Positions 38,291-58,653 of a DNA stretch of 64,000 nt are shown piece by piece; within the stretch, counting starts at the first letter, position 1; each line of letters opens with the position of its first letter. The notes beneath the pieces are model-generated. The model was given only the letters and a program-made list of their open reading frames with translations. It was not told where the DNA came from and did no database searches. The translations under genes were made by a program, and so were the position numbers. Location: the NCBI GenBank assembly GCA_963614595.1, contig CAVECL010000004.1, positions 2,268-66,267 on the forward strand, given 5' to 3'. The stretch comes from Parasutterella excrementihominis. Its GTDB lineage: Bacteria; Bacillota_I; Bacilli_A; RFN20; CAG-826.

Positions 38291-38318
38291 TTGCTTGAAT
38301 GGTCTCCCTCCCTATAAT
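38291..38318 (+). promoter_or_regulatory. promoter TTGCTT-16-TATAAT for the Hpt gene
   Basis: -35 at 38291-38296 and -10 at 38313-38318. GGAG RBS at 38337-38340 before the ATG at 38347. Confidence 0.5.
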
Positions 38319-38346
38319 GCCAATGCCTAGAAAACGTGGAGACGGC

Positions 38347-38700
38347 ATGATCGATTTGAAAAAGTTCTACAACAGCGTTGGCTCCGATGCGGATGATGTC
38401 ATTAGCCGTTTAGGAGGAAACGCCCGTCTTGCGAAGCGGTTCGTCAAGAGGTTCTTGGATGACAAATGCTTTTCGGATTTGCTCCTTTCCTTTGAGAAAG
38501 ACGATGCCCAGTCTGCTTTGAGGGCCGCCCATACCTTAAAAGGGGTTGCGGCGAACCTTGGAATGCAGACTTTGTTCGTCAAAACCTCTGAAGTCACCGA
38601 GCTTTTGGACGCAGGGAAACTTGAAGAATGCAAGAAAGCCTTGCCCGCTCTGCAAGAGGAATATTTCCGGGTTCGCTCTCTTGTCGAAGACCTTGTCTGA
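38347..38700 (+). CDS. stand-alone Hpt (histidine phosphotransfer) domain protein
   Basis: Canonical Hpt motif AAHTLKGVAANLGM in an ~117-aa helical protein. Confidence 0.7.
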   Translation: MIDLKKFYNSVGSDADDVISRLGGNARLAKRFVKRFLDDKCFSDLLLSFEKDDAQSALRAAHTLKGVAANLGMQTLFVKTSEVTELLDAGKLEECKKALPALQEEYFRVRSLVEDLV

Positions 38701-38934: not shown

Positions 38935-40446
38935 ATGGAAGAAAAAACAAAAATGGAAACTAGGACCGACCGTTCTTACATTTCCAAAACTTCCGGGTTG
39001 CAAGGAAAAGACTATATCGGCTATGCCCTAGGCGATTTTGCCGGTTGCCTTTGCTTCTCTACGGTCACGACGATCCTGCAGAAGTACTACACGGACATCT
39101 TGGGCTTGACCCCGTTGTTCATCATGATCATGTTCATCGTCGCCCGTGTGTGGGACGCGATCAACGACCCGATCATGGGGCGCATTGTTGATATCAGGCG
39201 CCCGGGGAAAGATGGCCGTTATCGCCCTTGGATGAAGTGGGTGGCCATTCCCCTTTGCCTTGCCACCATCCTGATGTTCTTGCCCTCTAGCGAAGCGGCT
39301 CAGTGGATGGGCGGTGTTGGGACAATGGTTTATGCCACGATCACCTACATCATCTTCGGCATGGTCTACACCGTGCATCAGATTCCTTACGGTTCGCTCG
39401 CCAGCGTCGTTACAACTGACGCCAAGGAAAGAAACAAGTTATCCGTCTTCCGCTCCGCAGGCGCGGCGCTTGGATCGATGCCGATTCTCATCCTTACCAT
39501 GTTCTATTCCAAAAAGCTCTGGAATGAAGATGGCACAGCGAAGCTAGGCGAAAACGGAAAGCAGCTCACCCAGGTTCAATATCTTCCGATTATCATCGGC
39601 GTTTCCGTGCTTGCCGTTGTCGGCTGCGTCCTTCTTTTCATCGCTTATCGCAATAACAAAGAAAGGGTGGTCGCCAAACCCGCTGAGCACAAGAAAGGCG
39701 AGACTTGGAAAATCGCTAAGAACCTCCTTAGGAACCACAACTTCGTCGCTATCTGCCTTGTGGGGCTTTTGCTCCTCGCCGCGCAGATGTTCACGCAGTC
39801 TTTCTACACCTATCTTTTCAACGATCTTTTCTCCGCGAACTGGATGAACCTCGCTTCTCAGGCGTGCTCTTATGGGCCAATGGTCGTGCTTATGTTCTTT
39901 GCGGGCAAACTTGTTAGGAAGTTCGGGAAGAAAGAAATCTGCGCCGTCGGGGGCATTGTTGCGGCGGTGCCTAACGTCATTCTTATCTTCTTAAAAGACG
40001 CGATTGTCGCCACCCCGATTCTCTTCTTGCCTTTCTGCCTCATTAGCGGCATCGGCATTTCGATCATCACCCTTGAGATGTGGGCGTTAGCCACTGATGC
40101 GATTGATGATGTCGAGGTTAAAACGGGTCTCCGAAATGACGGGTCCTCTTATTCCACCTTCATGTTCTTCCGCAAGATGGGCCAGGTTCTCGCCGCCATC
40201 TGCGTGAACGTCGCCCTTATTGCCATGAACTACAAATCCGGCAGCGGAGAGGTCCAAACCGCGGAAACGCTCAACACCATGTATTATATGGCCACCGCCA
40301 TCCCGGCCGGACTATTCGCCCTCCTTGGTCTCACGCTTATCTTCCTTTATGGCCTTAGCAAAAAGAAAACCGATGAGCTGCAGGACAGAAAAGAAGAGCT
40401 TCTTGCGAAGCAGGTTGAGAACAACGAAGTCACGATCGGCGGATAA
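38935..40446 (+). CDS. GPH-family glycoside:cation symporter (YihO/MelB-like)
   Basis: 12-TM protein with the GPH signature RVWDAINDPIMGRIVD. Confidence 0.85.
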   Translation: MEEKTKMETRTDRSYISKTSGLQGKDYIGYALGDFAGCLCFSTVTTILQKYYTDILGLTPLFIMIMFIVARVWDAINDPIMGRIVDIRRPGKDGRYRPWMKWVAIPLCLATILMFLPSSEAAQWMGGVGTMVYATITYIIFGMVYTVHQIPYGSLASVVTTDAKERNKLSVFRSAGAALGSMPILILTMFYSKKLWNEDGTAKLGENGKQLTQVQYLPIIIGVSVLAVVGCVLLFIAYRNNKERVVAKPAEHKKGETWKIAKNLLRNHNFVAICLVGLLLLAAQMFTQSFYTYLFNDLFSANWMNLASQACSYGPMVVLMFFAGKLVRKFGKKEICAVGGIVAAVPNVILIFLKDAIVATPILFLPFCLISGIGISIITLEMWALATDAIDDVEVKTGLRNDGSSYSTFMFFRKMGQVLAAICVNVALIAMNYKSGSGEVQTAETLNTMYYMATAIPAGLFALLGLTLIFLYGLSKKKTDELQDRKEELLAKQVENNEVTIGG

Positions 40447-40449
40447 AAC

Positions 40450-41418
40450 CTATTCCCCGAAAATCTTATTAAAGGCGCCTAGCGCGCCTTTAATTTCGTT
40501 GATTTTCTGATAGTCCTCATAGACGCAGATCTTGGTTAAATCGAAGTCCGGCTTCAAAGAAATGATTTGCTTTTTCAACAGGGCGATTATATCTTCGGAA
40601 GTGAGCAAAGCGCCGGAAAGAATGATTTTTTGCAGGGATAATAAGGAATCCGCGTTGCAAAGAGCGAAGGAAAGAACGGTTAGAATCCCATCGAGCTTCG
40701 CTTTGTTTTTTTGAATCAAAGCAAGGCCTTCTTTCTCTTCGACTTCCCTCCCCAGGATGGAAGAATAGGAAATCGTGTCTTCTACGGTCTTATCTCGATA
40801 GAACGTGTGGCCAAGCTCGGAGGTGGCTCCAAGAGGCTTGCCGTTGGTGTAAATCGAAGAACCGAGACCAGGGCCGTATTTCACAAGGAGGAAGTTCTTG
40901 TCCTCGTGATGGGATAAAGAATAGATGGAGGCAAGGCAATCTACGTTGTTGAAGACGAAGTAGGGAACGCCGCTTCCTTGAACCTCATGGAACAATCCTG
41001 GATAACGCGTCTTAAAAGACTCTAGGCTCGCCTCGCCGCGAATGGTTATGCCGATGCCCAGCATCCTTCTTTTGGGTTTGGAGAGAATGTCGCCTAAAGA
41101 AGTTGCAGCATCGTCGGAACTGAAAATCGGTTCCCCGGAGAAATCCACGAGATTGAGGTAGGAATGATGCTTTCTCACGTCTATCGACAGGAAAGAGCCA
41201 TAATTGGCGTTAAGGGTGACGCGCAGTTCTCTTCTGCCGACTTTTTGGCTGGTTTTGCTGCTGGTTTCCAAAACCAGGCCATCGTTGATCAAAGGCTTAA
41301 GGGCTAGAGTTAAAGCGGCGTTTGTCAAGGCGAGCTTCGACGCGAGCAAAGTCCTCGTGGAGCTTTTTTCCACGAGCAGGATGCGAATGATTGTTTTCTG
41401 CGTTTTCGTCAAAGCCAT
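40450..41418 (-). CDS. ROK/NagC-like transcriptional regulator
   Basis: N-terminal wHTH (TQKTIIRILLVEKSSTRTLLASKLALTNAALTLALKPL) followed by a sugar-kinase-like fold with ELGH. The usual Cys-rich zinc motif is not evident. The ATG at 41418 is preferred. Confidence 0.6.
   Translation of the reverse strand: MALTKTQKTIIRILLVEKSSTRTLLASKLALTNAALTLALKPLINDGLVLETSSKTSQKVGRRELRVTLNANYGSFLSIDVRKHHSYLNLVDFSGEPIFSSDDAATSLGDILSKPKRRMLGIGITIRGEASLESFKTRYPGLFHEVQGSGVPYFVFNNVDCLASIYSLSHHEDKNFLLVKYGPGLGSSIYTNGKPLGATSELGHTFYRDKTVEDTISYSSILGREVEEKEGLALIQKNKAKLDGILTVLSFALCNADSLLSLQKIILSGALLTSEDIIALLKKQIISLKPDFDLTKICVYEDYQKINEIKGALGAFNKIFGE
40469..40500 (+). terminator. intrinsic terminator for the symporter gene, embedded in the 3' end of the convergent ROK gene
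   Basis: TTAAAGGCGC (40469-40478) / GCGCCTTTAA (40484-40493) with a 5-nt loop, then TTTCGTT. Confidence 0.6.
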
Positions 41419-41422
41419 AATT

Positions 41423-42139
41423 TTATAGGAATAGTGTAACCCCTGAAAGAAGCAAGAGGACACAGGTAATCTTCATGAAAACGTTTTTTGATAGCTTGGG
41501 GACGACGAAGGAGCCGATGACCAAAGAAAGGATGGTGGCTCCCGCCCCAAAGCCGAGAAGCATCCAAACATGAGCTGTAAATAAGCCGTCCATCATCTCA
41601 GTGGCGAAGAGCATCGAGTTCAAAATGATCCAAAGCAGCGATAAGGTAGATCTGAATTTGCTCTTATCCTTAAGTTCGTGTAGGGCGTAGATAACAACAA
41701 AGGGGCCGCCTGAAACATATAGTTTATGCATGATTCCGCCCAGGAAAAGGAAGATGATCATTAGCCACTTCGGAAGATTCACTTTCTCGAAATCCACGAA
41801 GAAGAAAGCAACCGCAATCACGATTACAAGCGAGGCGTATACGTATAAAAGGATCTTCGTGTCCATCGGGATGAGCTCAATCGCGAACCCCGTCCCAAAC
41901 CCCGCTCCAACGGATAAAAGAATAATTAAAAAATGTTTCCAATCAATGTCCTTGAAATGGGCGGCTACGATATAAACGCAGACAACCATGGCAACGAGAT
42001 TCAAAACTGGTTTAGCGGTGTTTGCCCCCTCCAATTTGAGAGAAAGAGGCATCGCCAAAACCGTTCCGGCGAAGCCGGTGATGGTTTGAATGATGTTGCT
42101 GATGAAGATTATCAGGATGAAAAGAATGTCTTGGACCAC
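41423..42139 (-). CDS. TauE/SafE (TSUP) family anion exporter
   Basis: About 7-8 TM segments, 238 aa, N-terminal ITGFAGTVLAMP motif. The GTG start overlaps the upstream stop (TAGTG). Confidence 0.75.
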   Translation of the reverse strand: MVQDILFILIIFISNIIQTITGFAGTVLAMPLSLKLEGANTAKPVLNLVAMVVCVYIVAAHFKDIDWKHFLIILLSVGAGFGTGFAIELIPMDTKILLYVYASLVIVIAVAFFFVDFEKVNLPKWLMIIFLFLGGIMHKLYVSGGPFVVIYALHELKDKSKFRSTLSLLWIILNSMLFATEMMDGLFTAHVWMLLGFGAGATILSLVIGSFVVPKLSKNVFMKITCVLLLLSGVTLFL

Positions 42140-42753
42140 TAGAAATCAACTCTTATGTTTTCTCCGACTATGCCGACGTAAGCCCCGTTTTTTGCTTGAA
42201 CGGCGTCTTTGTGGGCGTAAAGCCATTTATTGACCTTCCAAAGTTTTTTGTCTTTGGGGATCTCCGCTAAGTCCATATTCGTTCCGTCTCCCAAGATGAT
42301 GAGGCAGCGAAATCCATCCTTGCTTAGTTTGCATGGAGAGAAATGAAAGACGTAGGGATATAAACAAACGGCCTGCCCTTTCTTCAGCAAGAAGGCCTCG
42401 ACGTCTTTGGAATCAAGCACGCCATCGCAAACATCATCTTGATTCGCCAAAAGCAAAACAAGATCGTCCCCGGCGACATCGACTTCTGGACAGGCGTGGT
42501 ATTCCATGCAATTAAGCAGGGAATTGAAGCCGTTGCAGTAGCCAACTTCAATTTCGCCAAATCCGTATATTTCCTCTTTGATCTCTGAAATTCCCCGCAA
42601 AACCTTCATGTTTTCATCACTGCGTACGTAAATATTGCCTTCTTGCGGCATCTTCGCGCGCCCATGAAGATAAGAAACCATCTCGCTGGTGTCTAGATTC
42701 AAGACTTTGCCAAACTTATGGAAAAGGGGATCAGTAACGCTTCGTATTTTCAT
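42139..42753 (-). CDS. DUF4867-like (cupin-type) protein
   Basis: About 204 aa. The N-terminal pattern IRSVTDPLFHKFGKVL...PQEGNIYV matches my recollection of DUF4867. GGGAG RBS lies before the ATG at 42753. Confidence 0.5.
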   Translation of the reverse strand: MKIRSVTDPLFHKFGKVLNLDTSEMVSYLHGRAKMPQEGNIYVRSDENMKVLRGISEIKEEIYGFGEIEVGYCNGFNSLLNCMEYHACPEVDVAGDDLVLLLANQDDVCDGVLDSKDVEAFLLKKGQAVCLYPYVFHFSPCKLSKDGFRCLIILGDGTNMDLAEIPKDKKLWKVNKWLYAHKDAVQAKNGAYVGIVGENIRVDF

Positions 42754-44062
42754 CAAGGATCTCCCAGTTCATAAGTCTGGCTAGATAAGTCATGGCTTTC
42801 TTGTATTGCACGTAGCCCATGATGACGTGATGGGCGACGCCGGTATAGGCAACCGTGTCGACGACCTCATTGATGGGGCGATTAAACACGACTTTGGCAT
42901 AGGTTCCTGAGAGGTCTTTGGTCATTGGAAAAGCTTCGCCTTCTTCATAGTAAATTCTTGTTCTCCCCCTGGCGGTGTCGATGCGGAGGATGGACATCTC
43001 GCCTTCTTTGAGGACGAAGTCCGCGGTGACTCCCTTCCCGCCGGCGAAATAAGTTTCCAAAGATCTGTTGCAACGCTTGTCCCAAAGATTGCACGGGGCT
43101 ACGCCATCATGCCAAAGGAGCGCGTAGTTCTCTTCGTAGTTGACTTGGGAAAGGTCGGCCATGAAGGGGGTGGGTTCGCCTGCTGCTTTGACGGCGACCA
43201 TGCTTAAGGCCGCCTCGATGTCGCCTTCGCAGGCAAGAAGAATCCCTCTTGATTGCAAGACGGACATCATCGCGCAGGGAGAGACCCCGTAGTTTTTCGC
43301 AAATTCTGGCCAGCAGCGGATGGCAACCACGTCGAGGCCCTTTTCCTTCATGAATTTTTCGGCGACCACGATGAGACGGGAAACCTGTTTGACTTGATAA
43401 TCATTGAGCTTCTTGCAGTCGAAAGTCGCGCGGAGATTCTTTTCTTCTTTCGCGCTTTCTTCCTCGTCTGCCTCTCCGCCGAAGAAATCGCTTAATTCAT
43501 AATGGCTGATGAGGATTCCCAGCTCTTTGTATAGATGAAGCTCATCCACCCCGACGTTATAGAAGCCTTGAGCGTGGAATCCGATGAGACCGACGCTCGA
43601 ATTCTCCAAAGCGGTTTTCATCTTGATGGCTTTGACCCAGTCATGATCGACGTCGTCTCCGACGTAGACGATGTAGTCGTCCACCCCGCCCTTATAGAGA
43701 TTTGAAGCGTTCAAGTTAACTCCGCAGACCGCGTTAAGTCGAATCTTCCCCCCATCGTATGGGAGCTCGTTATATCCCTGGAGGAGGAAAGGCTTCTTGA
43801 CGATATCGTGGAGGATCAATGCAAGCCCGCCTAAATGGAAGGTCGCGGAGACGACGACGAGGGCATCCACGTGTTTTTCGACGAAATAGTTGCCGGCTTC
43901 TTTAGCCTCGTTGGCTTCGATGACCATTGTGGGGTAGTAGACCCAGTCGATGGAATCATCTTCCATCACTTTCTTGCACCTTTCTTGATAGAGTTTGAAG
44001 GCGGTTTCGTAATCAAATGTTTTGCGGACTAGGCAAACTAGGCCGATGATGGGCTTTCTCAT
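42731..44062 (-). CDS. L-fucose/L-arabinose isomerase-like sugar isomerase
   Basis: About 443 aa. The N-terminal Rossmann-like block GLVCLVRKTFD...VDALVVVSATFHLGG is typical of the fucose-isomerase-like family. 1-nt gap to the upstream gene. Confidence 0.55.
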   Translation of the reverse strand: MRKPIIGLVCLVRKTFDYETAFKLYQERCKKVMEDDSIDWVYYPTMVIEANEAKEAGNYFVEKHVDALVVVSATFHLGGLALILHDIVKKPFLLQGYNELPYDGGKIRLNAVCGVNLNASNLYKGGVDDYIVYVGDDVDHDWVKAIKMKTALENSSVGLIGFHAQGFYNVGVDELHLYKELGILISHYELSDFFGGEADEEESAKEEKNLRATFDCKKLNDYQVKQVSRLIVVAEKFMKEKGLDVVAIRCWPEFAKNYGVSPCAMMSVLQSRGILLACEGDIEAALSMVAVKAAGEPTPFMADLSQVNYEENYALLWHDGVAPCNLWDKRCNRSLETYFAGGKGVTADFVLKEGEMSILRIDTARGRTRIYYEEGEAFPMTKDLSGTYAKVVFNRPINEVVDTVAYTGVAHHVIMGYVQYKKAMTYLARLMNWEILDENTKRY

Positions 44063-44063
44063 G

Positions 44064-44900
44064 TTATTTGACCTCATTGACGATTTTGTAGGAAGCGGAG
44101 AAGTCCTCCTTTGCAAGGCCTTCTTTCATCGCTTCTTCGTAGATAGAGACAATACGCGTTAAGGCAGGGCATTCTTTTCCGGCGTCATTCGCCATTTCTC
44201 TGGCGAAATGAACGTCTTTGTTCATGTTTTCCACCGAGAATGCGGTGGGGTAGGTGTTGGAAATAATGTTTTTGGCTTTGGTGTCCAAATAGAAGCACTG
44301 GGCTCCGCCATAGCCTAACGCGGTGATGACTTCTTCCTGATTGAGGCCAAGGGCTTTTGCCAGGCCAAGGATTTCATTGACCCCGTTTTGGATCTCTCCG
44401 ACTAAGCCGTTGTGGAGGATCTTCATCTGAAGTCCTGCGCCGTGGCCGCCCATGTAGATGATGTTCTTGCCCATGCAAGAAAGAACGGGTTTTATGTTTT
44501 CGTAGATTTCTTTTTTGCCGCCCACGTAGATGCCTAGTTCGCCTTTAACGGCGGCAGGCTGAGACTTCACGACGGGGCAATCCAGGATTTCGACGCCCGT
44601 TCCTTCCAATTCCTTTGCGACCTTTTGGTTCGTTGATGGGGAGATCGTGGACATGTCAATCCAAATCTGACCTTTGCGGAAGTGGGGTTTCAATTCGGAA
44701 AAGAGCGAGAGCATATGCTCGTTTTTTGGAACCATGGAGATAATGACGTCCGCGAAGTCTGCGCATTCTTTATAGGATGAGGCAAAGGGGAATGGGGTGT
44801 CTTTTTTTATGACATCATAGCCGAGTAAGGGATATTCTTTGGCGACGTTATTGGCCATAGGCATCCCCATGATGCCAAGGCCGATAAAAGCGATTCTCAT
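44064..44900 (-). CDS. NAD(P)-dependent 3-hydroxyisobutyrate dehydrogenase-family reductase (YihU-like)
   Basis: MRIAFIGLGIMGMPMA dinucleotide-binding motif and HIBADH-type length and C-terminal domain. Confidence 0.85.
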   Translation of the reverse strand: MRIAFIGLGIMGMPMANNVAKEYPLLGYDVIKKDTPFPFASSYKECADFADVIISMVPKNEHMLSLFSELKPHFRKGQIWIDMSTISPSTNQKVAKELEGTGVEILDCPVVKSQPAAVKGELGIYVGGKKEIYENIKPVLSCMGKNIIYMGGHGAGLQMKILHNGLVGEIQNGVNEILGLAKALGLNQEEVITALGYGGAQCFYLDTKAKNIISNTYPTAFSVENMNKDVHFAREMANDAGKECPALTRIVSIYEEAMKEGLAKEDFSASYKIVNEVK

Positions 44901-44901
44901 C

Positions 44902-45582
44902 TTAATTTCCTTTCGTGTGGTCCCAGGCATCCTGGAAAACGCCTAAGCCATAAGTGGTAAAGGGGTGGTTGAAGCTGTCTTCGTAGACGGCTAGACCAGC
45001 GGTGACGATATCGGCGCCTAGCTCAGCGGCATCGGCGATCTGCTTGCCGTTTCTTACCGCGGCCACGATGATCTCCGTTTCGTATCCTTTTTCTTTATAG
45101 ATGTTCACAAGCTGGGAGATGTATGGGTAAGTGTCTTCTCCGTTGTTTTCTTTCCATCCGACGAAAGGAGAAACGAATTTGGCGTTGATTCGCCCGGCTT
45201 GGATGGCTTGAGAGGGAGAGAAGACCAAGGTGACGTTTGTGCGGATGCCAATTTTCTCGAGCTGATAGGCGGCTTTGACTCCTTCGGTGGTGCAGGGGAT
45301 TTTGATCGCGAAGTTCTCGGAAATCGCAGAGACCCTCCTTGCCTCTTCCATCATGTCCTCGGCTTTGTTCAAGTGGGGGTTGATCTCAACTGAGACCGGG
45401 AAGACATCGATGCCTTCTAAATGGTTCTCCTTAATCCAATTGGCAATGTCGGTAATCGCGGTTAAAAAAGGTTTGCCCGAAGCCATGATGTGCTTGGGAT
45501 TCGTGGTGACCCCGTCGATTTTGTAGTTCTTATAAGCAAAGTCGATTTCATTTAATTTGGCTGAATCAAGAAAATATTTCAT
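44902..45582 (-). CDS. FSA/TalC-type transaldolase-family enzyme
   Basis: MKYFLDSAKLNEI...GVTTNPKHI N-terminus, Schiff-base Lys context FAIKIPCT, and VSPFVGW. About 226 aa. AGGAGG RBS and ATGA overlap with the upstream stop. Confidence 0.85.
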   Translation of the reverse strand: MKYFLDSAKLNEIDFAYKNYKIDGVTTNPKHIMASGKPFLTAITDIANWIKENHLEGIDVFPVSVEINPHLNKAEDMMEEARRVSAISENFAIKIPCTTEGVKAAYQLEKIGIRTNVTLVFSPSQAIQAGRINAKFVSPFVGWKENNGEDTYPYISQLVNIYKEKGYETEIIVAAVRNGKQIADAAELGADIVTAGLAVYEDSFNHPFTTYGLGVFQDAWDHTKGN

Positions 45583-47564
45583 TGTAAGTTTCCTCCTTTT
45601 TCTTGGCTTAGATTTTTGAATAACTCCGCAAAAGTCGAGCCTTTCTTGTAAAAAGCAATAGGCAGGCCTATTGGCGAATCGATTTCTCCTTCCCCTGAAG
45701 GAACCTCTATGTTCGTGAAGAACTGCACCCATTCTCCTTTCGGAAGATAGTAACGATGCCTTGTTTCAGCGGGTCTTAGCACAGGGGAAACTAGAACGTC
45801 TGGGCCGAACATATATTCCCTCTTGTTCACATAGGCTTCTTGCTCATCGAAATAGAAGAAGAGGGGCGCGATCATCGGAGTGTTGTTTTTGTAATACTCT
45901 TCGTAAAGATGCTCGCGATAAGGTTTCAGTCTAACGAAGATGTCCGTGTTTTTGATGAATTCAGGATAGGTGTTGGGATTATCGTATTGGACATTGTTCT
46001 TGGGCTGATTGCCTTCGTGGGTGCGGTAGATCGGCGAGAAGATGTTCATCTCCGCCCAACGGTTGAATAGCTCCGCGTCTCTTTTCATCGGGTACAAGGC
46101 CGTGATGGTCGTGTAGCCTCCGATGTCGCTATGAATGACTCCCGCCCCAGAACAGGCTAAAGAGATGCAGGCTGGGATAACGCTTGCTAAGCCATATTCG
46201 TCTGAGTAATCGACGTGCTGGTCGCCATTCCACATGGAATTCGTGAATTGGAAGGTATGGCCATAAGCCGCTCTAGAGAAGTAGAAGATCTCGTCTTCCT
46301 TCCCTTCTTCCTTGACTGCGTCAAATGAGCACTTCGCCCACATGGTCGGCCAGCGGTTATGGAGTTTCTCGCTCTCTCCGCCATAGCAAACCGAATCGGT
46401 TGGCAAATATTCTCCGAAGTCTGCCATCCAACCTGAGAGGCCGTATTCGATCATGTTCTTCTTGATGATGTCGACGTACCATGCGCGGGCGGTTGGATTG
46501 GTGAGATCCACGATTCCGGCGTTAAAAGTGGTGGATTTGATGTGATAGACGGAGCCGTCTTTATGGCGGATCAGGAAGCCTTTCTTTTTAGCTTCTAGAT
46601 ACATCGGGGCTCCTTCCTTTAAGAAGGTGTTGATGTAGCCAAGAAAACGCACGCCCTCGGAATTCAGTTTCTTGATGATCTCTTTTAAGTTAGGATAAAG
46701 CTTCTCGTCGGCTTTCCAGTTCCAATAGACCTGATAGCCGAAGCTCGTCACGTGATTTCCGCACCAGTCCTGGCACCAAATAGCCGCGATTTTCAGTCCT
46801 TTTTGCTTGGCTTCCTCATATTTCTTGAGCAAAACCTCGCTGCCGCCCTGGATTGCCAGAATGACCCCGTCATTGACCCAGGAAGGCACTTTTGGCTGAA
46901 GCCCAACGAGTTTAGAGACCTCTTGAGATAGACCAAGCATGGAATCCGACGCGATCAGCGAAATCGATTGAGGGATCTGCCTGAATTTGATAAGCAGCTC
47001 ATCCTTTTTGAAGGAAAGAAAGCCATATGTGTCTTCGTGGCAATAAATCGCATAGCCTTTGGAGGACATGAACGACGGCGCGGAGCAATAAGTCTGATGG
47101 TCCTTATACGGGGATTCATGATCCGGCTGAGGGCCATGAAGCCTTTCCCTTAATTGCTTCTTGGCTATTTTCATCACCTGCTGATGCTCGCTGACCCAGA
47201 TGGGGACGTCTTTCCCTTTCAAATCAACGGTGGTGTATTGTTCGCCACAGCCATAGATATGCTCATCTTCAAACGTTTTGAAGCGGAGGGTGAAGCGGTT
47301 GTAGCCCGGATCGACATGGAAATGGAATTTTATCCAGGGGTCTTTGTCGACGATTATCTCTGCCTGAACTTTACCGTCGGTAAAGATGTAGCGCTTCCCG
47401 TCCTGGAAAGAGAAAACCAGCTTATGACGGTCGGTTATATGGTCTTTCGTCTTGAAAGAGCCCCTTGTCATCTTATAGCTTGCCTTGCCTTTGCCAATCA
47501 CCATATAGCAAGAGCCGTCGGTTAGCTGCCGCAAAAAATAGTCGTATAGTTCTTCTTTGCTCAC
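45579..47564 (-). CDS. yihQ: YihQ-family GH31 (sulfoquinovosidase-like) glycosidase
   Basis: GWMADFGEYLPTD, WNGDQHVDY, HSDIGGYTT and RTHEGN blocks match E. coli YihQ as I recall it. GTG start with an AAAGGAGGG RBS. Confidence 0.8.
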   Translation of the reverse strand: MSKEELYDYFLRQLTDGSCYMVIGKGKASYKMTRGSFKTKDHITDRHKLVFSFQDGKRYIFTDGKVQAEIIVDKDPWIKFHFHVDPGYNRFTLRFKTFEDEHIYGCGEQYTTVDLKGKDVPIWVSEHQQVMKIAKKQLRERLHGPQPDHESPYKDHQTYCSAPSFMSSKGYAIYCHEDTYGFLSFKKDELLIKFRQIPQSISLIASDSMLGLSQEVSKLVGLQPKVPSWVNDGVILAIQGGSEVLLKKYEEAKQKGLKIAAIWCQDWCGNHVTSFGYQVYWNWKADEKLYPNLKEIIKKLNSEGVRFLGYINTFLKEGAPMYLEAKKKGFLIRHKDGSVYHIKSTTFNAGIVDLTNPTARAWYVDIIKKNMIEYGLSGWMADFGEYLPTDSVCYGGESEKLHNRWPTMWAKCSFDAVKEEGKEDEIFYFSRAAYGHTFQFTNSMWNGDQHVDYSDEYGLASVIPACISLACSGAGVIHSDIGGYTTITALYPMKRDAELFNRWAEMNIFSPIYRTHEGNQPKNNVQYDNPNTYPEFIKNTDIFVRLKPYREHLYEEYYKNNTPMIAPLFFYFDEQEAYVNKREYMFGPDVLVSPVLRPAETRHRYYLPKGEWVQFFTNIEVPSGEGEIDSPIGLPIAFYKKGSTFAELFKNLSQEKGGNLQ

Positions 47565-47749: not shown

Positions 47750-48391
47750 TTATTCGATACCGAATAGGTATTTTCGATAAAGCTTTTCCGTCTTTTCTTT
47801 GCCTATGTTTTTGACGAAGACGTCGGTTGAGGCGCCGCCATGCTTAAGCAAGCCATTCACGTAAACGGCTTGGAGGGCTTTCTTCTCTTCCGGATTTATG
47901 CCTTTCGCTTCTTTGATGATCTTGCAGAACTCGTTTAGATAAGCCTCGATGGTTTCGCCGAACAAGACTTTATCTTTTTTGGATTTGTTCGCGGTGGAGA
48001 CGCTTAGGCGGATTGGGTCATACCATGCGGGCTTCGCCTGGTAGGCTGGAACGTCTTTCAGTTTTTCTTTGATCGCCTGAAGGGAAGGATAGTCGGTTTT
48101 CTCTTTTAAGGTGTCGTAGCACTCAATTATGACCGTCTCGTTCTTCATTACTTCGATCGCGTCGTAGCTGAATAATGGGACGTCTTTGGTGAAAACCGTA
48201 AGCATAATCGCGTCCGTCTTCATAAGGCCCAGCATTGCCTTGCCTTTGAGAATCGATAGACGCCCTATTCCTTTTACGTCATAACAGACAACGTTGAACT
48301 TCATCGGTCCGACTTTCATTTTGGCGAATTCGCCGATATCGAGTTTGCTTAGCTCGAAATATTTGCCAAAGATGTTTTCAATGGTTTCCAT
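47750..48391 (-). CDS. hypothetical cytoplasmic protein
   Basis: 213-aa ORF with coding-like composition. There is only a faint resemblance (LTVFTKDVPLFSYDAIEV...ECYDT) to ferredoxin-dependent bilin reductase folds. Confidence 0.45.
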   Translation of the reverse strand: METIENIFGKYFELSKLDIGEFAKMKVGPMKFNVVCYDVKGIGRLSILKGKAMLGLMKTDAIMLTVFTKDVPLFSYDAIEVMKNETVIIECYDTLKEKTDYPSLQAIKEKLKDVPAYQAKPAWYDPIRLSVSTANKSKKDKVLFGETIEAYLNEFCKIIKEAKGINPEEKKALQAVYVNGLLKHGGASTDVFVKNIGKEKTEKLYRKYLFGIE

Positions 48392-48650: not shown

Positions 48651-49172
48651 ATGGTTACCAAAGAAGAAGTGCGATTTTTGCACCTGTTATTTGCTTCCTG
48701 GATTGTTTTGATGGCTTTTGCCGTGGCGACGACCGTTCTTTCCATCGTAAATATTTGGCAAGCCAATTCGATGAACAACAACATCTTCGAATTGCTTTTC
48801 ATGGCGTTCCACATTATTTTGCTAGGCTTCCTGATCATGGTCACCTTAAACGCCTTCAAAAAAGGAAGTCATATCATCAGGTCCCTAACCTATGGAGCCT
48901 ATGAGGGGGCGAGCCTTTTCTACCGCGCTCTTTCTATCCTTATTTTAATAATAGGGATTGCCTTAACTGTATTCGGAATCCTTTTCTTGGCTCCCACGGG
49001 CATTCATGACTTTGGCTTCCCAATCACTTTGAAGTGGGCGATGGTAAATGCGGGGCTGACACTTGCAGTCCTGAGCCTTGCTTTCTTGCTGTTTCCGATT
49101 TTATTCGCGAAGAATCCTACTTTGACCAAGCAAAAAGAAAACGAACTTAATGAAGGGAAAAAACAAAGATGA
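48651..49172 (+). CDS. small 4-5 TM membrane protein, unknown function
   Basis: 173-aa hydrophobic ORF. Its stop overlaps the GH13 start (ATGA). Confidence 0.5.
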   Translation: MVTKEEVRFLHLLFASWIVLMAFAVATTVLSIVNIWQANSMNNNIFELLFMAFHIILLGFLIMVTLNAFKKGSHIIRSLTYGAYEGASLFYRALSILILIIGIALTVFGILFLAPTGIHDFGFPITLKWAMVNAGLTLAVLSLAFLLFPILFAKNPTLTKQKENELNEGKKQR

Positions 49173-50824
49173 AAAAGAAAGCTGCTTTACTAGGGATTAC
49201 CGCCTTATCCCTTGCCGCATTGACGGGATGCAAATCAGGGGCAGACACCGCCGCTTCCGGCAAAAACGCTGAGACGACGTCTATTTACGACCCTCTTGAT
49301 GATGACGAGATCTATTTGCAGAAGGATCCCGCGGACGATTACGTCTACGCGGATTCCAGCAATGAGGACGGGTCGATGAATTATGAGATTTTCGTTCGCT
49401 CATTCTACGATTCTAACGGCGATGGAATCGGTGATCTCAATGGCGTGAAAGCCAAACTCCCTTACATCGCCGACATGGGATATAAAACGATCTGGCTGAT
49501 GCCGATTTTCCCTAGCATGAGTTACCACGGCTATGACGTGACCGACTACTATAACGTCAACGATGATTACGGCACCCTCGAGGACTTCGACTCTTTAATA
49601 AGCGAAGCGAAAAAGCATAACATCGACATCATGCTCGACATGGTTTTGAACCATTGTTCTTTGCAAAACCCTTATTTCGCCGAGGCCTTCGCGGATTATA
49701 AAGCAGGCAAAACCGGCGAGGGCTCGAAGGCTGACTGGTTCAATTTCGGGTCCACGGGCGATCATGTCTATCAAGGCATTCGTTACGAATCCAAATTCGA
49801 TGCGAATATGCCGGACTTTAACCTAGATTCGGAAGGCGTCCGCGCCGAGATGGAAAACATTGTCAAATTCTGGATCGATCGCGGGGTAAAAGGATTCCGT
49901 CTCGATGCGGTGCTTTATTATTACTACCAAGTAACGAATAAAAACGTCGAATTCCTAAATTGGCTTGCGGACACTTGCCATAAATACGATCCTGATTTCT
50001 ATATGGTAGGGGAATGCTGGGCCTCAAGCGCCTTGCTGAACACGTATTTTTCCTCCAAATGCGATTCGTTCTTCGATTTCTCTTTGCCAAGCGGGGGAGA
50101 CAACGTCTGCATAAGCTACCTCAAAGGATATGGGCGAATCGAAAACGTCAGCGAGAACATCGAGAAGAACGAGACCGCCCGGAAGGAGAAGAACCCGGCT
50201 GCTTACACTTCTTATTTTTTGAGCAACCATGACATGGACCGCATCTCCAAGAACTTCACGGACGAGAATGCTTATAAATCAGCCTGTTCTTTCTATGCCT
50301 TGCTTCCCGGAGATGTCTACACCTATTACGGCGAGGAAATCGCCTTAAAAGGCACCCGAGGCACGAATCCGGATGACCAAAACGACGTAAAGCGCCGCTT
50401 GCCCATGATTTGGAGCAAAAACGATAAGACCGGCGAATGCGCCTTTCCGGATAAAAGCCGTCCAGATCTAGACACTACCGAGCAAGTCGAAGAGGGCGTG
50501 GAAGACCAGCGAAGCAAACCTTTTTCTCTTACAAACCATTACAAGATGATGATCCACATAAGGAACAAGTATTCTTGGATCAAACGCGCGACCTACAAAG
50601 ACCTTTCATCCGAGCTTAATACCAGCGAGTACTCGGTGATGGCTTATTCCTTGTCTTGCGGGGATGAGAAAATAATCGTCGTCCATAATTTTTCCAGCCA
50701 TAACGTGGAGGTCGCTTCTCCGGGAAGCGAAATCGTGGACCAAATCAACACGATGCATCGCATCCCGGAGCTGAGCGGAGGTAAGCTTCGCCTTGCCGCC
50801 CATAGCAGCGTAATTCTTAAGTAG
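49169..50824 (+). CDS. GH13 alpha-amylase-family lipoprotein
   Basis: Lipobox AALTGC. GH13 regions I-IV are present: DMVLNH, GFRLDAVLY, GECW, FLSNHD. Confidence 0.9.
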   Translation: MKKKAALLGITALSLAALTGCKSGADTAASGKNAETTSIYDPLDDDEIYLQKDPADDYVYADSSNEDGSMNYEIFVRSFYDSNGDGIGDLNGVKAKLPYIADMGYKTIWLMPIFPSMSYHGYDVTDYYNVNDDYGTLEDFDSLISEAKKHNIDIMLDMVLNHCSLQNPYFAEAFADYKAGKTGEGSKADWFNFGSTGDHVYQGIRYESKFDANMPDFNLDSEGVRAEMENIVKFWIDRGVKGFRLDAVLYYYYQVTNKNVEFLNWLADTCHKYDPDFYMVGECWASSALLNTYFSSKCDSFFDFSLPSGGDNVCISYLKGYGRIENVSENIEKNETARKEKNPAAYTSYFLSNHDMDRISKNFTDENAYKSACSFYALLPGDVYTYYGEEIALKGTRGTNPDDQNDVKRRLPMIWSKNDKTGECAFPDKSRPDLDTTEQVEEGVEDQRSKPFSLTNHYKMMIHIRNKYSWIKRATYKDLSSELNTSEYSVMAYSLSCGDEKIIVVHNFSSHNVEVASPGSEIVDQINTMHRIPELSGGKLRLAAHSSVILK

Positions 50825-50888
50825 CCATCTAATAAATTCGGATTTAGAACCATCTGAATGAGTTTTTTTCGGCGTTTTGAAACAACTG

Positions 50889-50909
50889 TTAATTAACTTC
50901 CTTAAAAAA
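50889..50909. promoter_or_regulatory. 21-bp AT-rich palindrome TTAATTAA-CTTCC-TTAAAAAA
   Basis: Lies in the intergenic region upstream of the SBP operon. Same architecture as the sites at 35161, 38854 and 47591. Confidence 0.5.
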
Positions 50910-51014
50910 CAAGAAAGGGGTTTCAAAAAACTCTTTACAATCAAGTCCGAGTTTCACAAAATAGTGCCATGGATTTATAGAGGAAGGCGCAAGCGCTTTA
51001 TTCTTCACGAAAAA

Positions 51015-51028
51015 TGTAAGCGCTTTTC
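51015..51028 (+). promoter_or_regulatory. cre-like site TGTAAGCGCTTTTC
   Basis: 12/14 match to TGNAANCGNTTNCA, 26 nt upstream of the ATG. A second AAGCGCTTT core lies at 50991-50999. Confidence 0.5.
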
Positions 51029-51053
51029 TCTAGATTATTGAAAGGAGAAAAAA

Positions 51054-52637
51054 ATGAAACTCAATAACAAAATCCTTTTTGCTCTCGCATTAACCCCGGC
51101 GATGCTTTTGGGCTCTTGCAACGGGAGCAATCCTGGCGGTGAATCCGCGGGGGGGTCCAACACGCCTGGCCCGAAAGAGACGGTTAAGATCTGGTGCTCT
51201 GAAGTAGAGGGCGTCGCCACTTCCTTCAAGACCATTGCCGAGAAGTGGGCGAGCGATAACAATCTCAACTATGAATTCGAAGTTACCGGCATCACCGAAG
51301 CGGATCAGGCCACTCAGATGCTTTCTGATGTTTCCGCTGGCGCTGATATCTATTGCTTCGCGCAAGATCAGTTTGCGCGTCTTGTTCAGGGAGCCGCCTT
51401 GTCTGAGCTTGGGCCCGGCGCTTCTGCTTGGGTCAAGGAGAACAACGTTGAAGACTCTATCAATGCCGTTACTTCTGGCGAATCGATTTACGCCTATCCT
51501 TTAACTGCTGACAACGGCTACTTCATGTATTACGACAAGAGCGTTATCGATGCCGATCATCTCGGCAGCCTCGAAGATATTGTCGATGATTGTGAAAAAG
51601 CCGGGAAAAACTTTTCTTTTCAACTCGGTGGATCCGGCTGGTATACCGCTTCTTTCTTCATGTCTCGTGACGAAAAAGGCGACCAACTTTGCCATTCCAA
51701 TTGGACGACGGATAATAAAGGCAAGTTCACTTCAGTCGATGATAACTGGAATTCAGACAACGGCGTGATTGCCGCGAAAGGCATGCAGCATTTGGTGAAA
51801 TCCGATTATTGGATGGATAGCTCAAATGCGGCTGACTTCTCTGCGAGCACTCCATCTGCCGTTGTTGTTTCCGGCTCTTGGGATTATACGAGCGCCAAAA
51901 AGGCTCTTGGCGATAATATGGGCGCCGCTGAGCTTCCGAGTTTCAAAGTAGACGGCAAGTCTTATCATCTCGGTTCTTTCTCCGGCTACAAACTACTCGG
52001 TGTCAAGCCGCAGACTGACTCTACTAGGGCGGCAAATCTCAACAAGCTCGCTCAGGTTTTGACTGGCTATGATGCTGAAATGGCAAGACTTGAGGCGTTT
52101 GGATGGGGCCCCTCCAACAAGCAAGCTCAGGCATCGGACGAATTCAAGGCCAACCCGGCTCTAGGCGCTCTTAGGGCCCAAATCAAGTACGCCACCGTTC
52201 AGGGTCAAATTCATGGCAGTTGGTGGGATATCTCCAAAGTTGTCGGAACCTCGCTTAAAACCGCGGGTACCGACGATGATTCCATCAAAGCCGTCCTCAA
52301 GACTTATAGCGACGCTGTGAGTGGCGTTCTTGGCATGAGTGACGAAGAAAAGCGCGCCTTCACCGTTATCGGCGAATTCGCGACGGCTCCTGTCGATGGC
52401 TGGACTAATTGGATCACCGATCTTCCGATGACCGAAGATCCGGAGGGCACCTGGACCAGCCCTGCGATCACTTTGACCGCTGGTGACAAGTTCAAAGTCC
52501 GTCAGGGCAAATCCTGGGATGTTAATTACGGCAAAAACGGCGACAACTATGTCGTCTCGGAAGAAGAAGCCGGCACCAAGAAGATTCAGCTCGTTTCTAC
52601 TTCTACTACCGGCGTTATCACGCTTCTTGACGCCTAA
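51054..52637 (+). CDS. MalE/CycB-type oligosaccharide-binding lipoprotein with an extra C-terminal CBM-like domain
   Basis: Lipobox LLGSC and an SBP core of about 430 aa. An additional ~94-aa domain (nt 52353-52634; FTVIGEF...GW.NW...M...GTW...LTAGDKFKVRQGKSWDVNYG) follows. Confidence 0.8.
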   Translation: MKLNNKILFALALTPAMLLGSCNGSNPGGESAGGSNTPGPKETVKIWCSEVEGVATSFKTIAEKWASDNNLNYEFEVTGITEADQATQMLSDVSAGADIYCFAQDQFARLVQGAALSELGPGASAWVKENNVEDSINAVTSGESIYAYPLTADNGYFMYYDKSVIDADHLGSLEDIVDDCEKAGKNFSFQLGGSGWYTASFFMSRDEKGDQLCHSNWTTDNKGKFTSVDDNWNSDNGVIAAKGMQHLVKSDYWMDSSNAADFSASTPSAVVVSGSWDYTSAKKALGDNMGAAELPSFKVDGKSYHLGSFSGYKLLGVKPQTDSTRAANLNKLAQVLTGYDAEMARLEAFGWGPSNKQAQASDEFKANPALGALRAQIKYATVQGQIHGSWWDISKVVGTSLKTAGTDDDSIKAVLKTYSDAVSGVLGMSDEEKRAFTVIGEFATAPVDGWTNWITDLPMTEDPEGTWTSPAITLTAGDKFKVRQGKSWDVNYGKNGDNYVVSEEEAGTKKIQLVSTSTTGVITLLDA

Positions 52638-52660
52638 TTGAATCTGAAGCGATAAACATA

Positions 52661-52699
52661 GGGTGGGGTTTAATTCACTTTTGCCCCACCCTTTTGGTC
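52661..52699 (+). terminator. intrinsic terminator/attenuator between SBP and permease genes
   Basis: GGGTGGGG (52661-52668) / CCCCACCC (52684-52691) with a 15-nt loop, then TTTTGGTCTTTT. Confidence 0.65.
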
Positions 52700-52728
52700 T
52701 TTTATAAAGTGATGACGAAAGGCGAACT

Positions 52729-54264: not shown

Positions 54265-54266
54265 TT

Positions 54267-55184: not shown

Positions 55185-55196
55185 GAGGAACTTACT

Positions 55197-56339: not shown

Positions 56340-56346
56340 AACCTAT

Positions 56347-56368
56347 GGGGCGCGGAAACGCGCCCCTT
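56347..56368 (+). terminator. GC-rich hairpin with GAAA tetraloop
   Basis: GGGGCGCG (56347-56354), GAAA, CGCGCCCC (56359-56366), then TT. The T-tail is short. Confidence 0.55.
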
Positions 56369-56425
56369 AACTCTTAAGATCTTGGCTTGCTCATCGTGAG
56401 AAGCCAAATTAGAAAGGATAACTCT

Positions 56426-58639: not shown

Positions 58640-58653
58640 TTAGGAATAAACAT

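Follow-up and report, generated by a model that had tools for sequence, protein, structure and literature searches.

Glutamine in place of the sulfonate-binding arginine in a clade of YihQ-family GH31 glycosidases from sulfosugar-degradation operons

The triad Arg301-Trp304-Tyr508 of E. coli YihQ is treated in the literature as the signature of GH31 sulfoquinovosidases (SQases) and serves as the filter by which candidates are kept or discarded, Arg301 being regarded as required. How, then, should one read a YihQ homologue that has lost this arginine? Such a gene lies in the window, i.e. the whole stretch of 64,000 nucleotides analysed here. A preliminary description of the locus left two options: either sulfonate is recognised differently, or the cluster serves another 6-substituted or neutral glucoside. 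Here, we examine which of them agrees with the protein itself, with its neighbouring genes and with its relatives.

The GH31 gene and its arginine-to-glutamine site

The open reading frame at 45579-47564 encodes a YihQ-family GH31 enzyme. The gene and the residues of its active site are as follows, residue positions being assigned by alignment.

45579..47564, minus strand: YihQ-family GH31 glycosidase, Gln-type, 661 aa
46419..46421, minus strand: Asp382, catalytic nucleophile (E. coli Asp405, YicI D416; WMADFGE motif)
46221..46223, minus strand: Asp448, catalytic acid/base (E. coli Asp472, YicI D482)
46731..46733, minus strand: Gln278, codon CAG, at the position of the sulfonate-binding Arg301 of E. 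coli; Gln in 181/181 clade members
46734..46736, minus strand: Tyr277, codon TAT (E. coli Lys300); Y/S/T/H/E/K/R within the Gln clade
46752..46754, minus strand: His271, codon CAC (E. coli Arg294); cross-strand neighbour of residue 278 in a beta-hairpin of the AlphaFold2 model
46722..46724, minus strand: Trp281, codon TGG (E. coli Trp304, sulfonate pocket), conserved
46113..46115, minus strand: Tyr484 (E. coli Tyr508, holder of the sulfonate-bound water), conserved

The GTG start is preceded, 7 nt upstream, by a strong ribosome-binding site, AAAGGAGG. The 661-residue product matches the Pfam GH31 domains PF01055 (4e-41), PF21365 and PF13802, as befits a (beta/alpha)8 catalytic domain flanked by N- and C-terminal beta domains, and scores 668 bits against the NCBIfam model NF007746, whose cutoff is 553. 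In a phmmer search of the PDB, SQases were the best matches (E = 1e-148 to 1e-125, with 9e-148 for E. coli YihQ), compared with 1e-39 for YicI. The AlphaFold2 model (pLDDT 84, pTM 0.87) matches the SQase structures 8R56, 5OHT, 6PNR and 5OHS with a TM score of 0.88, the next GH31 group reaching only about 0.7, and in the tree the protein lies inside the YihQ lineage, with YicI outside. The known enzymes E. coli YihQ, A. tumefaciens SmoI/AtSQase, E. rectale SftG (6PNR) and BmSQase (8R56) belong to the same GH31 subfamily, at 36-39% identity. With the validated SQases of the YihQ clade the window protein shares the Asp pair, the Gln262/Gln288 pair, Trp304, Tyr508, His537 and the operon position; relative to E. 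coli YihQ it keeps Q262, Q288, D289, W290, W304, D405, D472, Y508 and H537. No obvious signal peptide was seen in the 661-residue protein. A second YihQ-like gene was not found in the window, where the other GH31 gene (31547-33787) is of the ordinary alpha-glucosidase/xylosidase type.

On the other hand, the sulfonate-binding Arg of the Q/E-RWY motif (Arg301 in E. coli) is absent, its Trp and Tyr being present. As had been proposed in the preliminary description, the gapless equivalent of the YihQ motif reads SFGYQVYWNW: phmmer pairs tsfgYQvywnwk, with no gap, with the E. coli YihQ segment tsfgKRvmwnwk and with the KR motifs in 6PNR and 8R56. The numbering, anchored on the authentic E. coli K-12 YihQ (L081), places R301 at Q278, K300 at Y277 and R294 at H271. 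The plus strand reads CTG at 46731-46733, the reverse complement of which is the CAG codon named earlier. The exchange of the preceding Lys for Tyr, the retention of Trp and of the HSDIGGYTT Tyr, and the presence of the other YihQ blocks (GWMADFGEYLPTD, HSDIGGYTT and RTHEGN) all hold as well. Loop 482-492, which contains Tyr484, is poorly defined in the AlphaFold2 model. A second conserved arginine, corresponding to Arg294 of E. coli, is also lost from the window protein, a change that the first description had passed over.

Two trivial causes of the exchange were considered and rejected. A misalignment is at odds with the gapless match between identical flanks, the numbering anchored on YihQ and the matching fold. 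A one-off substitution or sequencing error is at odds with the clade-wide occurrence of Gln and with the use of both of its codons. Indeed, when close homologues were inspected, all of the 120 nearest ones (96-46% identity) carried Gln, as did the genes at 66 of 80 genome loci. Its codon in these 66 loci is CAG in 55 cases and CAA in 11, Arg being one transition away; since the codon varies, it is the residue that stays fixed. The homologues, the codon use and the covariation described below show a change that runs through the whole clade and is subject to selection. That it is not peculiar to the window gene had escaped the earlier description.

Sulfosugar gene clusters around Gln-type and Arg-type genes

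The neighbouring genes in the cluster are the following.

44902..45582, minus strand: orthologue of sulfofructose transaldolase; 226 aa, start codon ATG at 45582 (PDB match, identity, residues)
44064..44930, minus strand: SLA reductase-like beta-hydroxyacid dehydrogenase, SftR type (Pfam NAD_binding_2/11)
42731..44116, minus strand: putative SQ isomerase, fucose-isomerase-like, from a divergent subfamily (weak Pfam Fucose_iso_C match)
42139..42756, minus strand: DUF4867 cupin, SftX/SqvB type (Pfam E = 1.7e-63)
41423..42139, minus strand: TauE/SafE-family exporter, putative DHPS exporter (Pfam E = 2.4e-16)
40450..41463, minus strand: putative regulator (weak, sub-threshold winged-HTH/ROK-like Pfam and NCBIfam matches only; conserved in syntenic loci)
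38935..40446, plus strand: GPH-family (MFS_2) glycoside:cation symporter, putative SQ-glycoside importer (Pfam E = 6.8e-75; TIGR00792 276 bits, cutoff 231)

The transaldolase is closer to the sulfofructose enzyme BmSF-TAL of B. megaterium (8BC3, E = 1.8e-90) than to an ordinary transaldolase (7e-43). It is 65% identical to BmSF-TAL and keeps D6, E61, K89, N111, S133, W138, A170 and R172, i.e. the catalytic, the sugar-orienting and the sulfonate-orienting (W138/A170/R172) sets. The reductase is 45% identical to that of the E. gilvus cluster, with identical pocket motifs. It differs from E. coli YihU by N174H and S178V, and all SftR-type sequences examined differ at both positions. These two differences were rejected as an argument against sulfonate: they are common to the reductases of E. 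gilvus and of a KR-type cluster and thus uninformative. The isomerase is the divergent member of the set: it scores 178 bits against the NCBIfam SftI model (cutoff 700) and is 24-28% identical to the isomerases of P. megaterium and E. gilvus, and about 50% to those of spirochaete sulfo-TK loci. P. megaterium and E. gilvus share the accessory set of TauE exporter, DUF4867 protein and glycoside importer, the latter of MFS_2 type in the window, and the DUF4867 family recurs in sulfoglycolysis clusters (PMC11968277).

Across loci, Gln-type genes occur in 44 sulfo-transaldolase and 5 sulfo-transketolase clusters, where they take the operon position otherwise occupied by Arg-type genes. One kind of sulfo-TK locus among them, in MAGs of Acholeplasma/Tenericutes, is the SqwD/SqwKL sulfoacetate variant. 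Arg-type genes were found in sulfo-EMP and sulfo-TK loci, and P. megaterium and E. gilvus carry them in sulfo-TAL clusters. The transaldolases adjoining Gln-type genes are mutually 57-94% identical and carry the catalytic and WAR residues of BmSF-TAL in 44/44 cases. The published sulfonate-type signature, S385A/F434/H461D/R520 (aligned to E. coli TktA), occurs in transketolase subunits next to GH31 genes of either type. The transketolase motif written 'RAFDR' consists of five non-contiguous residues. Since Gln-type genes sit inside ordinary sulfosugar-degradation operons, cleavage of sulfoquinovose (SQ) glycosides has most likely been retained.

Of the two initial options, a different mode of sulfonate recognition is the best-supported reading, and a cluster for another glucoside finds no support. 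A neutral or otherwise 6-modified alpha-glucoside, e.g. a quinovoside, would agree with the loss of three basic residues around the C6 pocket (R301Q, K300Y, R294H) and with the divergence of the cluster isomerase from validated SQ isomerases. Nevertheless, the invariant WAR motif in the neighbouring transaldolases, the closeness of the window's own enzyme to validated BmSF-TAL, the sulfonate-type transketolases, beside which SqwD/SqwKL-type genes would convert sulfoacetaldehyde to sulfoacetate, the TauE exporters, the same reductase pocket as in E. gilvus, which degrades SQ, and the retained Trp304 and Tyr508 make this option highly improbable.

A degenerate, non-catalytic paralogue acting as a sugar-binding or regulatory protein is improbable to a still greater degree, and we give it almost no credence. 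The absence of a residue regarded as essential speaks for it; against it, the nucleophile, the acid/base, His537 and the Gln262/Gln288 pair (Gln239/Gln265 in the window protein) are invariant across the alignment of the clade, purifying conservation is strong down to about 40% identity, and at 49 loci the Gln-type gene is the sole YihQ-family gene seen in the cluster.

The validated SQases of E. coli, A. tumefaciens, E. rectale and B. megaterium are all of the Arg type, and so is the GH31 enzyme of E. gilvus, which degrades SQ. In the literature searched, neither a Gln-type enzyme nor an experimentally studied Gln-type organism was found, P. megaterium and E. gilvus being KR-type; the rumen, human and mouse SQ studies used free SQ and hold no residue-level information.

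Extent of the Gln clade and its co-varying positions

Gln-type and Arg-type sequences were sampled by similarity to two queries, so that the counts given here describe these samples and not a census. Among the 150 nearest clusters at 50% identity, 78 are of the Gln type. In a neighbour-joining tree built with the diagnostic columns removed and YicI as outgroup, the Gln types group in one clade, which also takes in one Arg-type sequence (L059), with a bootstrap of 88/100. Strict monophyly of the Gln types is obtained in only 8/100 replicates because L059, from a spirochaete, nests among them; its lineage has kept Arg and carries Thr-Gly at positions 368/369. Gln-type genes are also found in the named strains Pseudobutyrivibrio ruminis DSM 9787 and Butyrivibrio sp. 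MB2005. The Gln clade is a large, deep branch of the sulfoquinovosidase family that had not been remarked on before.

Compared with the validated SQases, the window protein has Arg301 replaced by Gln, Gly368-Glu369 by Thr-Thr, Asn/Ser474 by His and SE(Q/P) by SEH, a different N-domain loop, and neither Lys300 nor Arg294. Three of these zones, in predicted active-site regions, are tightly coupled to the Gln change; this coupling was missed in the preliminary description.

46527..46532, minus strand: Thr345-Thr346, replacing Gly368-Glu369 of E. coli; the pair that co-varies most strongly with the Arg-to-Gln change
46215..46217, minus strand: His450, two positions beyond Asp448, the acid/base; Asn474 in E. 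coli and Ser in Arg types of Firmicutes, by alignment
47136..47186, minus strand: N-domain loop 127-143, His127 followed by the basic helix HQQVMKIAKKQLRERLH (local motif; helix at 130-143 in the AlphaFold2 model)

At positions 368/369, TT is found in 181/181 Gln-type sequences and GE in 133/135 Arg-type ones. Gly368 of E. coli aligns with W380 of YicI, which, together with D306, C307 and F308, is reported to belong to the active site of that enzyme (Lovering et al. 2005). From the covariation we infer that Arg301 and Glu369 contact each other in the canonical enzymes. Position 474 is His in 178/181 sequences of the Gln type, and no Arg-type sequence has His there. In the N-domain, a loop with a 4-residue insertion and the basic helix stands in place of the Arg-type loop SE(Q/P)G-VGRNKQ; the column of E. 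coli Q153 is alignment-sensitive and was scored by the local motif, SEH for the Gln type and SE[QP] for the Arg type.

Another basic residue might have taken over the role of Arg301, and the adjacent hairpin strand (R294/M295 in E. coli) was considered in this respect. Some Gln subclades do carry a candidate compensating Arg/Lys there (GCRR.. or GRRV..). The window's subclade reads GNHV, GHVV or GQII; none of its 132 sequences has Arg at 294/295, which is kept in the 49 other Gln-type sequences. Compensation from this strand was therefore rejected as a general solution. In a family-wide contrast, no basic residue was common to all Gln types and missing from the Arg types. The only Gln-type candidates left were His450, His127 and the basic helix, and a basic loop, VGRNK, occurs in Arg types too.

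These changes extend beyond the C6 pocket, to His450 and the whole N-domain loop with its insertion and helix. This suits a reading in which the sugar is still SQ and the enzyme differs in the aglycone or lipid form (SQDG, lyso-SQDG or another SQ glycoside) or in relaxed specificity, the rebuilt loop and the His past the acid/base reshaping the +1 subsite. Remodelling at these likely aglycone-side residues could mean changed specificity instead of simple compensation. The presence of Arg-type and Gln-type genes in the same pathway types would also be expected if the form of the substrate differed and not the product. However, the absence of an obvious signal peptide and an adjacent GPH symporter, a kind used for soluble glycosides, favour cytoplasmic SQ-glycerol, the same substrate as that of Arg types. 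Moreover, the two types stood side by side in none of the loci examined. We regard an altered aglycone or specificity as rather unlikely. Somewhat greater, though still tentative, weight is given to the broader possibility that the clade is functionally distinct and more than a tolerated variant: with both its C6 pocket and its aglycone site remodelled, it would cover other substrates than classical SQases do, for example a different lipid form or natural SQ glycoside, or a second glucoside, modified at C6, that enters the same operons.

Predicted sulfonate recognition and its consequences

The interpretation that we favour, and consider probable, is that the window GH31 is an SQase variant binding sulfonate through neutral hydrogen-bond donors. 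Imported by the adjacent GPH symporter, an SQ glycoside, probably sulfoquinovosyl glycerol, would be hydrolysed by this cytoplasmic retaining GH31 glycosidase, whose nucleophile and acid/base are Asp382 and Asp448, respectively. The SQ released would then enter the co-transcribed pathway, passing from the isomerase to the SF transaldolase and the SLA reductase, with export of DHPS by TauE. In the Gln clade, Gln and Thr-Thr stand in place of the canonical Arg301/Glu369 pair. Since a positive and a negative residue give way to neutral ones, the net charge of those positions is unchanged. The sulfonate could be held by the Gln278 amide, the Thr345/346 hydroxyls, the Trp281 indole NH and the water bound to Tyr484, with possible assistance from His450 or His127. 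Both the new pocket geometry and the SQase activity of the Gln type are what we infer.

Known systems provide partial parallels. SqgH of Alteromonas macleodii is likewise a GH31 SQase without the canonical Arg-Trp-Tyr triad; it belongs to a distinct clade without the Q/E-RWY motif, and its predicted residue set, R302, T377, K412 and F513, includes an Arg and a Lys (PMC12780224). In contrast, the window protein lies inside the YihQ lineage and keeps the Trp and Tyr, with no evident replacement Arg. A precedent within the family is the swap between Gln262/Gln288 of E. coli and Lys245/Glu270 of A. tumefaciens, reported to have been tested experimentally (Abayakoon et al. 2018, as summarised in other papers). 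There, an ion pair and a neutral pair interchange with function kept, the same logic as in the putative exchange of Arg301/Glu369 for Gln/Thr, although the tested pair reads a sugar hydroxyl and not the sulfonate. The E. coli SLA reductase YihU accommodates sulfonate in a pocket of Asn174, Ser178 and the Arg123 backbone NH (PMC8006165), that is, through neutral side-chain and backbone donors and no Arg side chain; its fold and reaction are unrelated, and the analogy is one of chemistry only. Finally, a family-level survey elsewhere found subclades that differ at a sulfonate-contact position and occur in variant gene clusters. In that family the contact comes from a backbone NH, so that the exchange of Leu for Tyr leaves the pocket as it was, whereas the Gln clade loses the charged side chain itself.

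The lineages concerned include Faecalibacterium, Roseburia, Butyrivibrio/Pseudobutyrivibrio and Acholeplasma-type Tenericutes, taxa of the human gut and related animal guts that have been named as major SQ degraders or sulfo-TAL expressers. Searches that require the Arg miss their genes. Should the clade prove functionally distinct, it would add a new kind of GH31 specificity to the first step of sulfoglycolysis among gut Firmicutes, Tenericutes and spirochaetes; and if Gln types are not SQases, the entry step would be misassigned in many annotated sulfoglycolysis operons. If, on the other hand, they are active SQases, motif filters undercount SQ-degrading potential and the obligatory-Arg model of sulfonate recognition is incomplete. 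The natural exchange of Arg/Glu for Gln/Thr would then offer a tractable system for anion recognition without a charged ligand.

A glutamine at the sulfonate-binding arginine position of the GH31 enzyme

The sulfonate pocket of E. coli YihQ is composed of Arg301-Trp304-Tyr508(H2O) (PMC8006165). The sulfoquinovosidase (SQase) motif has been defined as Q/E-RWY (PMC12780224), and SQase candidates are still filtered on pocket or motif residues in recent work. Validated SQases, namely E. coli YihQ, A. tumefaciens SQase, E. rectale SftG (6PNR) and B. megaterium BmSQase (8R56), are all Arg-type, that is, they carry Arg at position 301 of E. coli YihQ (Ec numbering). The YihQ-family GH31 gene studied here is Gln-type, with Gln278 at this position.

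Features of the GH31 gene
45579-47564, minus strand: GH31 ORF, 661 aa, GTG start with AAAGGAGG 7 nt upstream
46734-46736, minus strand: Tyr277, flanking Gln278
46731-46733, minus strand: Gln278, codon CAG (plus-strand triplet CTG)
46722-46724, minus strand: Trp281, flanking Gln278

When searched with phmmer against all PDB chains, the protein matched SQases best (E. coli YihQ, 9e-148; 6PNR; 8R56; A. tumefaciens 5OHS), and the next GH31 enzyme, YicI, was far weaker at 1e-39. The motif region gives a gapless alignment, tsfgYQvywnwk in the window and tsfgKRvmwnwk in E. coli, and residue numbering was confirmed on the authentic E. coli K-12 yih region. Three residues differ (R301->Q278, K300->Y277, R294->H271), while Q262, Q288, D289, W290, W304, the nucleophile D405, the acid/base D472, Y508 and H537 (Ec) are kept. 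The AlphaFold2 model, computed from a 12-sequence alignment (pLDDT 84, pTM 0.87), matches four solved SQases with a TM of 0.88, against about 0.7 for other GH31 structures. Since the alignment is gapless, the numbering confirmed and the fold matched, the preliminary description, which had Gln replacing the sulfonate-binding Arg, Tyr replacing the preceding Lys, and the pocket Trp and Tyr retained, is correct in every detail; the finding is real. In the same model, loop residues 482-492 (46089-46121, GGYTTITALYP), which carry Tyr484, have a pLDDT below 50, so that the model fixes neither the loop conformation nor the placement of Tyr484; Arg-type enzymes have a loop shorter by three residues (…GGYTT-LFE…).

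Spread of the Gln type and coupled changes

Gln occupies Ec 301 in 120/120 nearest homologues (96% to 46% identity) drawn from a 5.8-billion-protein collection, which settles the check on close relatives proposed in the preliminary description; Ec 300-301 reads YQ in 83 of them, SQ in 25 and TQ, HQ and EQ in 4 each. When 1.84 billion proteins were searched exhaustively, the 150 best cluster representatives (50% identity) included 67 Gln-Trp-Tyr, 11 Gln-Trp-Phe and 41 Arg-Trp-Tyr, and 66 of 80 loci recovered from species-representative genomes are Gln-type; sampling was by similarity to the window protein and, for Arg-type sequences, to the GH31 of E. gilvus, and these proportions are indicative, not a census. 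The 66 loci use both CAG (55) and CAA (11), and therefore the residue is held constant while the codon drifts. A non-catalytic paralogue is very unlikely, given that the catalytic residues are invariant.

Groups carrying the Gln type (residue pairs are Ec 300-301)
The window's own lineage: uncultured gut Bacilli
Acholeplasma/Tenericutes MAGs
Lachnospiraceae/Treponema/Erysipelotrichaceae: motif GCRR-TGFG-YQ-VMWNW; includes Butyrivibrio sp. MB2005 and Pseudobutyrivibrio ruminis DSM 9787
Faecalibacterium/Oscillospirales: motif GRRV-TAVG-KQ
Spirochaetes: RQ/SQ

Six loci from CAV... 'cleanbin' assemblies (L002, L004, L005, L006, L034, L062) are 80-94% identical to the window's cluster and are labelled Lachnospiraceae, Bacteroidales, Alistipes onderdonkii, Roseburia hominis and Parabacteroides goldsteinii; independent relatives (L007, L009, L010) are labelled 'Bacilli bacterium'. 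Organism names in this series are evidently unreliable.

In an alignment of 316 YihQ-family members plus YicI (317 sequences), the state of several other positions follows almost perfectly from the residue at Ec 301.

Positions coupled to Ec 301
Ec 368-369: Gly-Glu in Arg-type (133/135); Thr-Thr in Gln-type (181/181)
Ec 474: Ser, Asn or Cys in Arg-type; His in Gln-type (178/181)

The N-domain loop reads W-T/S-S-E-(Q/P)-G-VGRNKQTY…AGGDYY in Arg types and, in the main Gln clade, W-V-(A/S)-E-H, after which come four inserted residues and a basic helix containing a conserved KK pair (residues 127-143 in the window enzyme, where AlphaFold2 predicts a helix at 130-143). Alignment with E. coli YicI places Ec K300-R301-V302-M303-W304 opposite F305-D306-C307-F308-W309 and G368 opposite W380, YicI positions that we take to lie in the active site, around C5/C6 and the sugar platform. 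The AlphaFold2 model pairs residues 270-273 with 276-279 in a tight hairpin, making residue 271 (Ec R294) a cross-strand neighbour of residue 278; Arg at Ec 294 is kept in some Gln subclades and lost in the window's.

That Arg301 and Glu369 are lost together suggests an ion pair between them in Arg-type enzymes, for which Gln plus Thr-Thr would be a charge-neutral substitute supplying amide and hydroxyl donors. Such an exchange would echo the Gln-Gln versus Lys-Glu pair swap known among SQases, as summarised in PMC12780224. Because His450 and the N-loop positions probably face the aglycone side, a changed glycoside or aglycone specificity with SQ (sulfoquinovose) still released is a serious rival, possible if on the unlikely side.

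In a neighbour-joining tree of 243 non-redundant sequences rooted on YicI, one split separates all Gln-type sequences (155/155), plus the Arg-type spirochaete L059, from the rest (bootstrap 88/100 with the diagnostic columns removed). L059 (KR, Thr-Gly, Leu474) clusters with L064, L070 and L066 (RQ/SQ, Leu474). This spirochaete MAG group, inside the Gln clade, has Thr-Gly or Thr-Thr at Ec 368/369, and L059, L064 and L066 retain the Arg-type N-loop. The group may be transitional or partly reverted, in which case its mixed states would help to reconstruct the order of changes.

Sulfoglycolysis genes and other genes of the window

The GH31 gene is tightly packed on the minus strand with genes for a transaldolase, a reductase, an isomerase, DUF4867, TauE and a weak wHTH/ROK-like ORF, followed by a convergent GPH symporter gene. 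The transaldolase shares 65% identity with the sulfofructose transaldolase of B. megaterium (1.8e-90 versus 7e-43 for ordinary transaldolase) and keeps the published catalytic triad D6, E61, K89, the sugar-orienting N111 and S133 and the sulfonate-orienting W-A-R, as do 44/44 transaldolases beside Gln-type genes. The reductase differs from E. coli YihU at N174 and S178; this is a family trait, since its pocket motifs recur in the reductase of E. gilvus, an SQ fermenter, and in that of one KR-type cluster.

Two Acholeplasma/Tenericutes MAG loci (L014, L015) encode a split transketolase, an RpiB-type isomerase, a CoA-acylating aldehyde dehydrogenase and a two-subunit ADP-forming CoA ligase, then a Gln-type GH31. 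These are the genes of the sulfoacetate variant of the sulfo-transketolase (sulfo-TK) pathway, which has been described in Acholeplasma sp. and is also reported from Tenericutes. The published SF-transketolase signature (S385A, F434, H461D, R520) occurs in subunits beside both Gln-type (L014-16, L053, L066) and Arg-type genes (L045, L060, L068). Of the Gln-type genes in the 80 loci, 44 have a sulfo-TAL and 5 a sulfo-TK context; of the Arg-type genes, 6 have a sulfo-EMP and 2 a sulfo-TK context. P. megaterium and E. gilvus, both validated sulfo-TAL organisms, have Arg-type genes. Thus, the two types are interchangeable occupants of one operon slot among sulfonate-specific enzymes. Sulfonate signatures in every neighbouring family examined make action of the Gln clade on a different sugar improbable, and speak against the earlier suggestion that the whole cluster targets another 6-substituted or neutral glucoside.

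The fucose-isomerase-like isomerase (42731-44116, minus) shares only 24-28% identity with its sulfo-TAL counterparts in P. megaterium and E. gilvus, and its NCBIfam SftI score of 178 bits lies below the cutoff of 700. Identity reaches about 50% with spirochaete sulfo-TK isomerases (L045, L060, L068) and 62-96% within the window's lineage (L002-L012, L034); the enzyme looks like the product of a second, putative SQ-isomerase subfamily. In three KQ-type sulfo-TAL loci (L038, L061, L080) there is a further, distant GH31 gene whose product has the motif YTSIGA(G/Q)RYVFNWN.

Immediately upstream of the GH31 gene, a 213-aa ORF (47750-48391, minus), conserved there in L001 (89%) and L003 (67%), is missing from more distant loci; neither Pfam nor NCBIfam assigns it to a family. 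Within a few kb of the SQ cluster, a second GH31 (31547-33787, minus, 746 aa) of ordinary alpha-glucosidase/xylosidase type, not YihQ-like (best PDB matches MalA, FjDex31A, YicI), overlaps by ~40 nt an upstream type-B carboxylesterase gene (33745-35127, minus, 460 aa; pNB-esterase-like, 1.8e-46); sulfolipid deacylation by this esterase would be pure speculation. Between this pair and the SQ-cluster transporter lie genes (35242-38700, plus) for a membrane histidine kinase (629 aa), a response regulator (258 aa) and a small Hpt-domain protein. Many polysaccharide-utilisation genes occupy 2415-25786 and 49169-60483; their products include GH81-like, GH16 and GH53 enzymes, as well as an ABC transporter alongside a lipoprotein amylase of the starch/maltodextrin type. 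The whole window has a GC content of 46-53%, its composition does not shift at the SQ cluster, and it contains no tRNA genes.

A probable sulfoquinovosidase subfamily without the pocket arginine

The most economical reading of the sequence data is that the window GH31 is probably a functional sulfoquinovosidase of a distinct, ancient subfamily with a rebuilt sulfonate pocket. Precedents exist both for Arg-free recognition, in YihU, whose sulfonate pocket consists of Asn, Ser and a backbone NH (PMC8006165), and for RWY-free recognition, in the distant GH31 SQase SqgH (PMC12780224). No mention of a Gln variant within the YihQ lineage was found in the literature searched, which did not include a key 2018 SQase-evolution paper. 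Faecalibacterium prausnitzii, Roseburia and related taxa have been named as human-gut sulfo-TAL expressers, and loci labelled Faecalibacterium (L049, L062) are KQ-type; therefore, the field already counts Gln-type genes as yihQ, without comment.

Collectively, these data point to a major, as yet uncharacterised variant of an enzyme type already known rather than to a new pathway. The annotation of SQ degraders is affected, because motif filters would discard the Gln clade. Furthermore, this clade bears on how sulfonate could be recognised without arginine.
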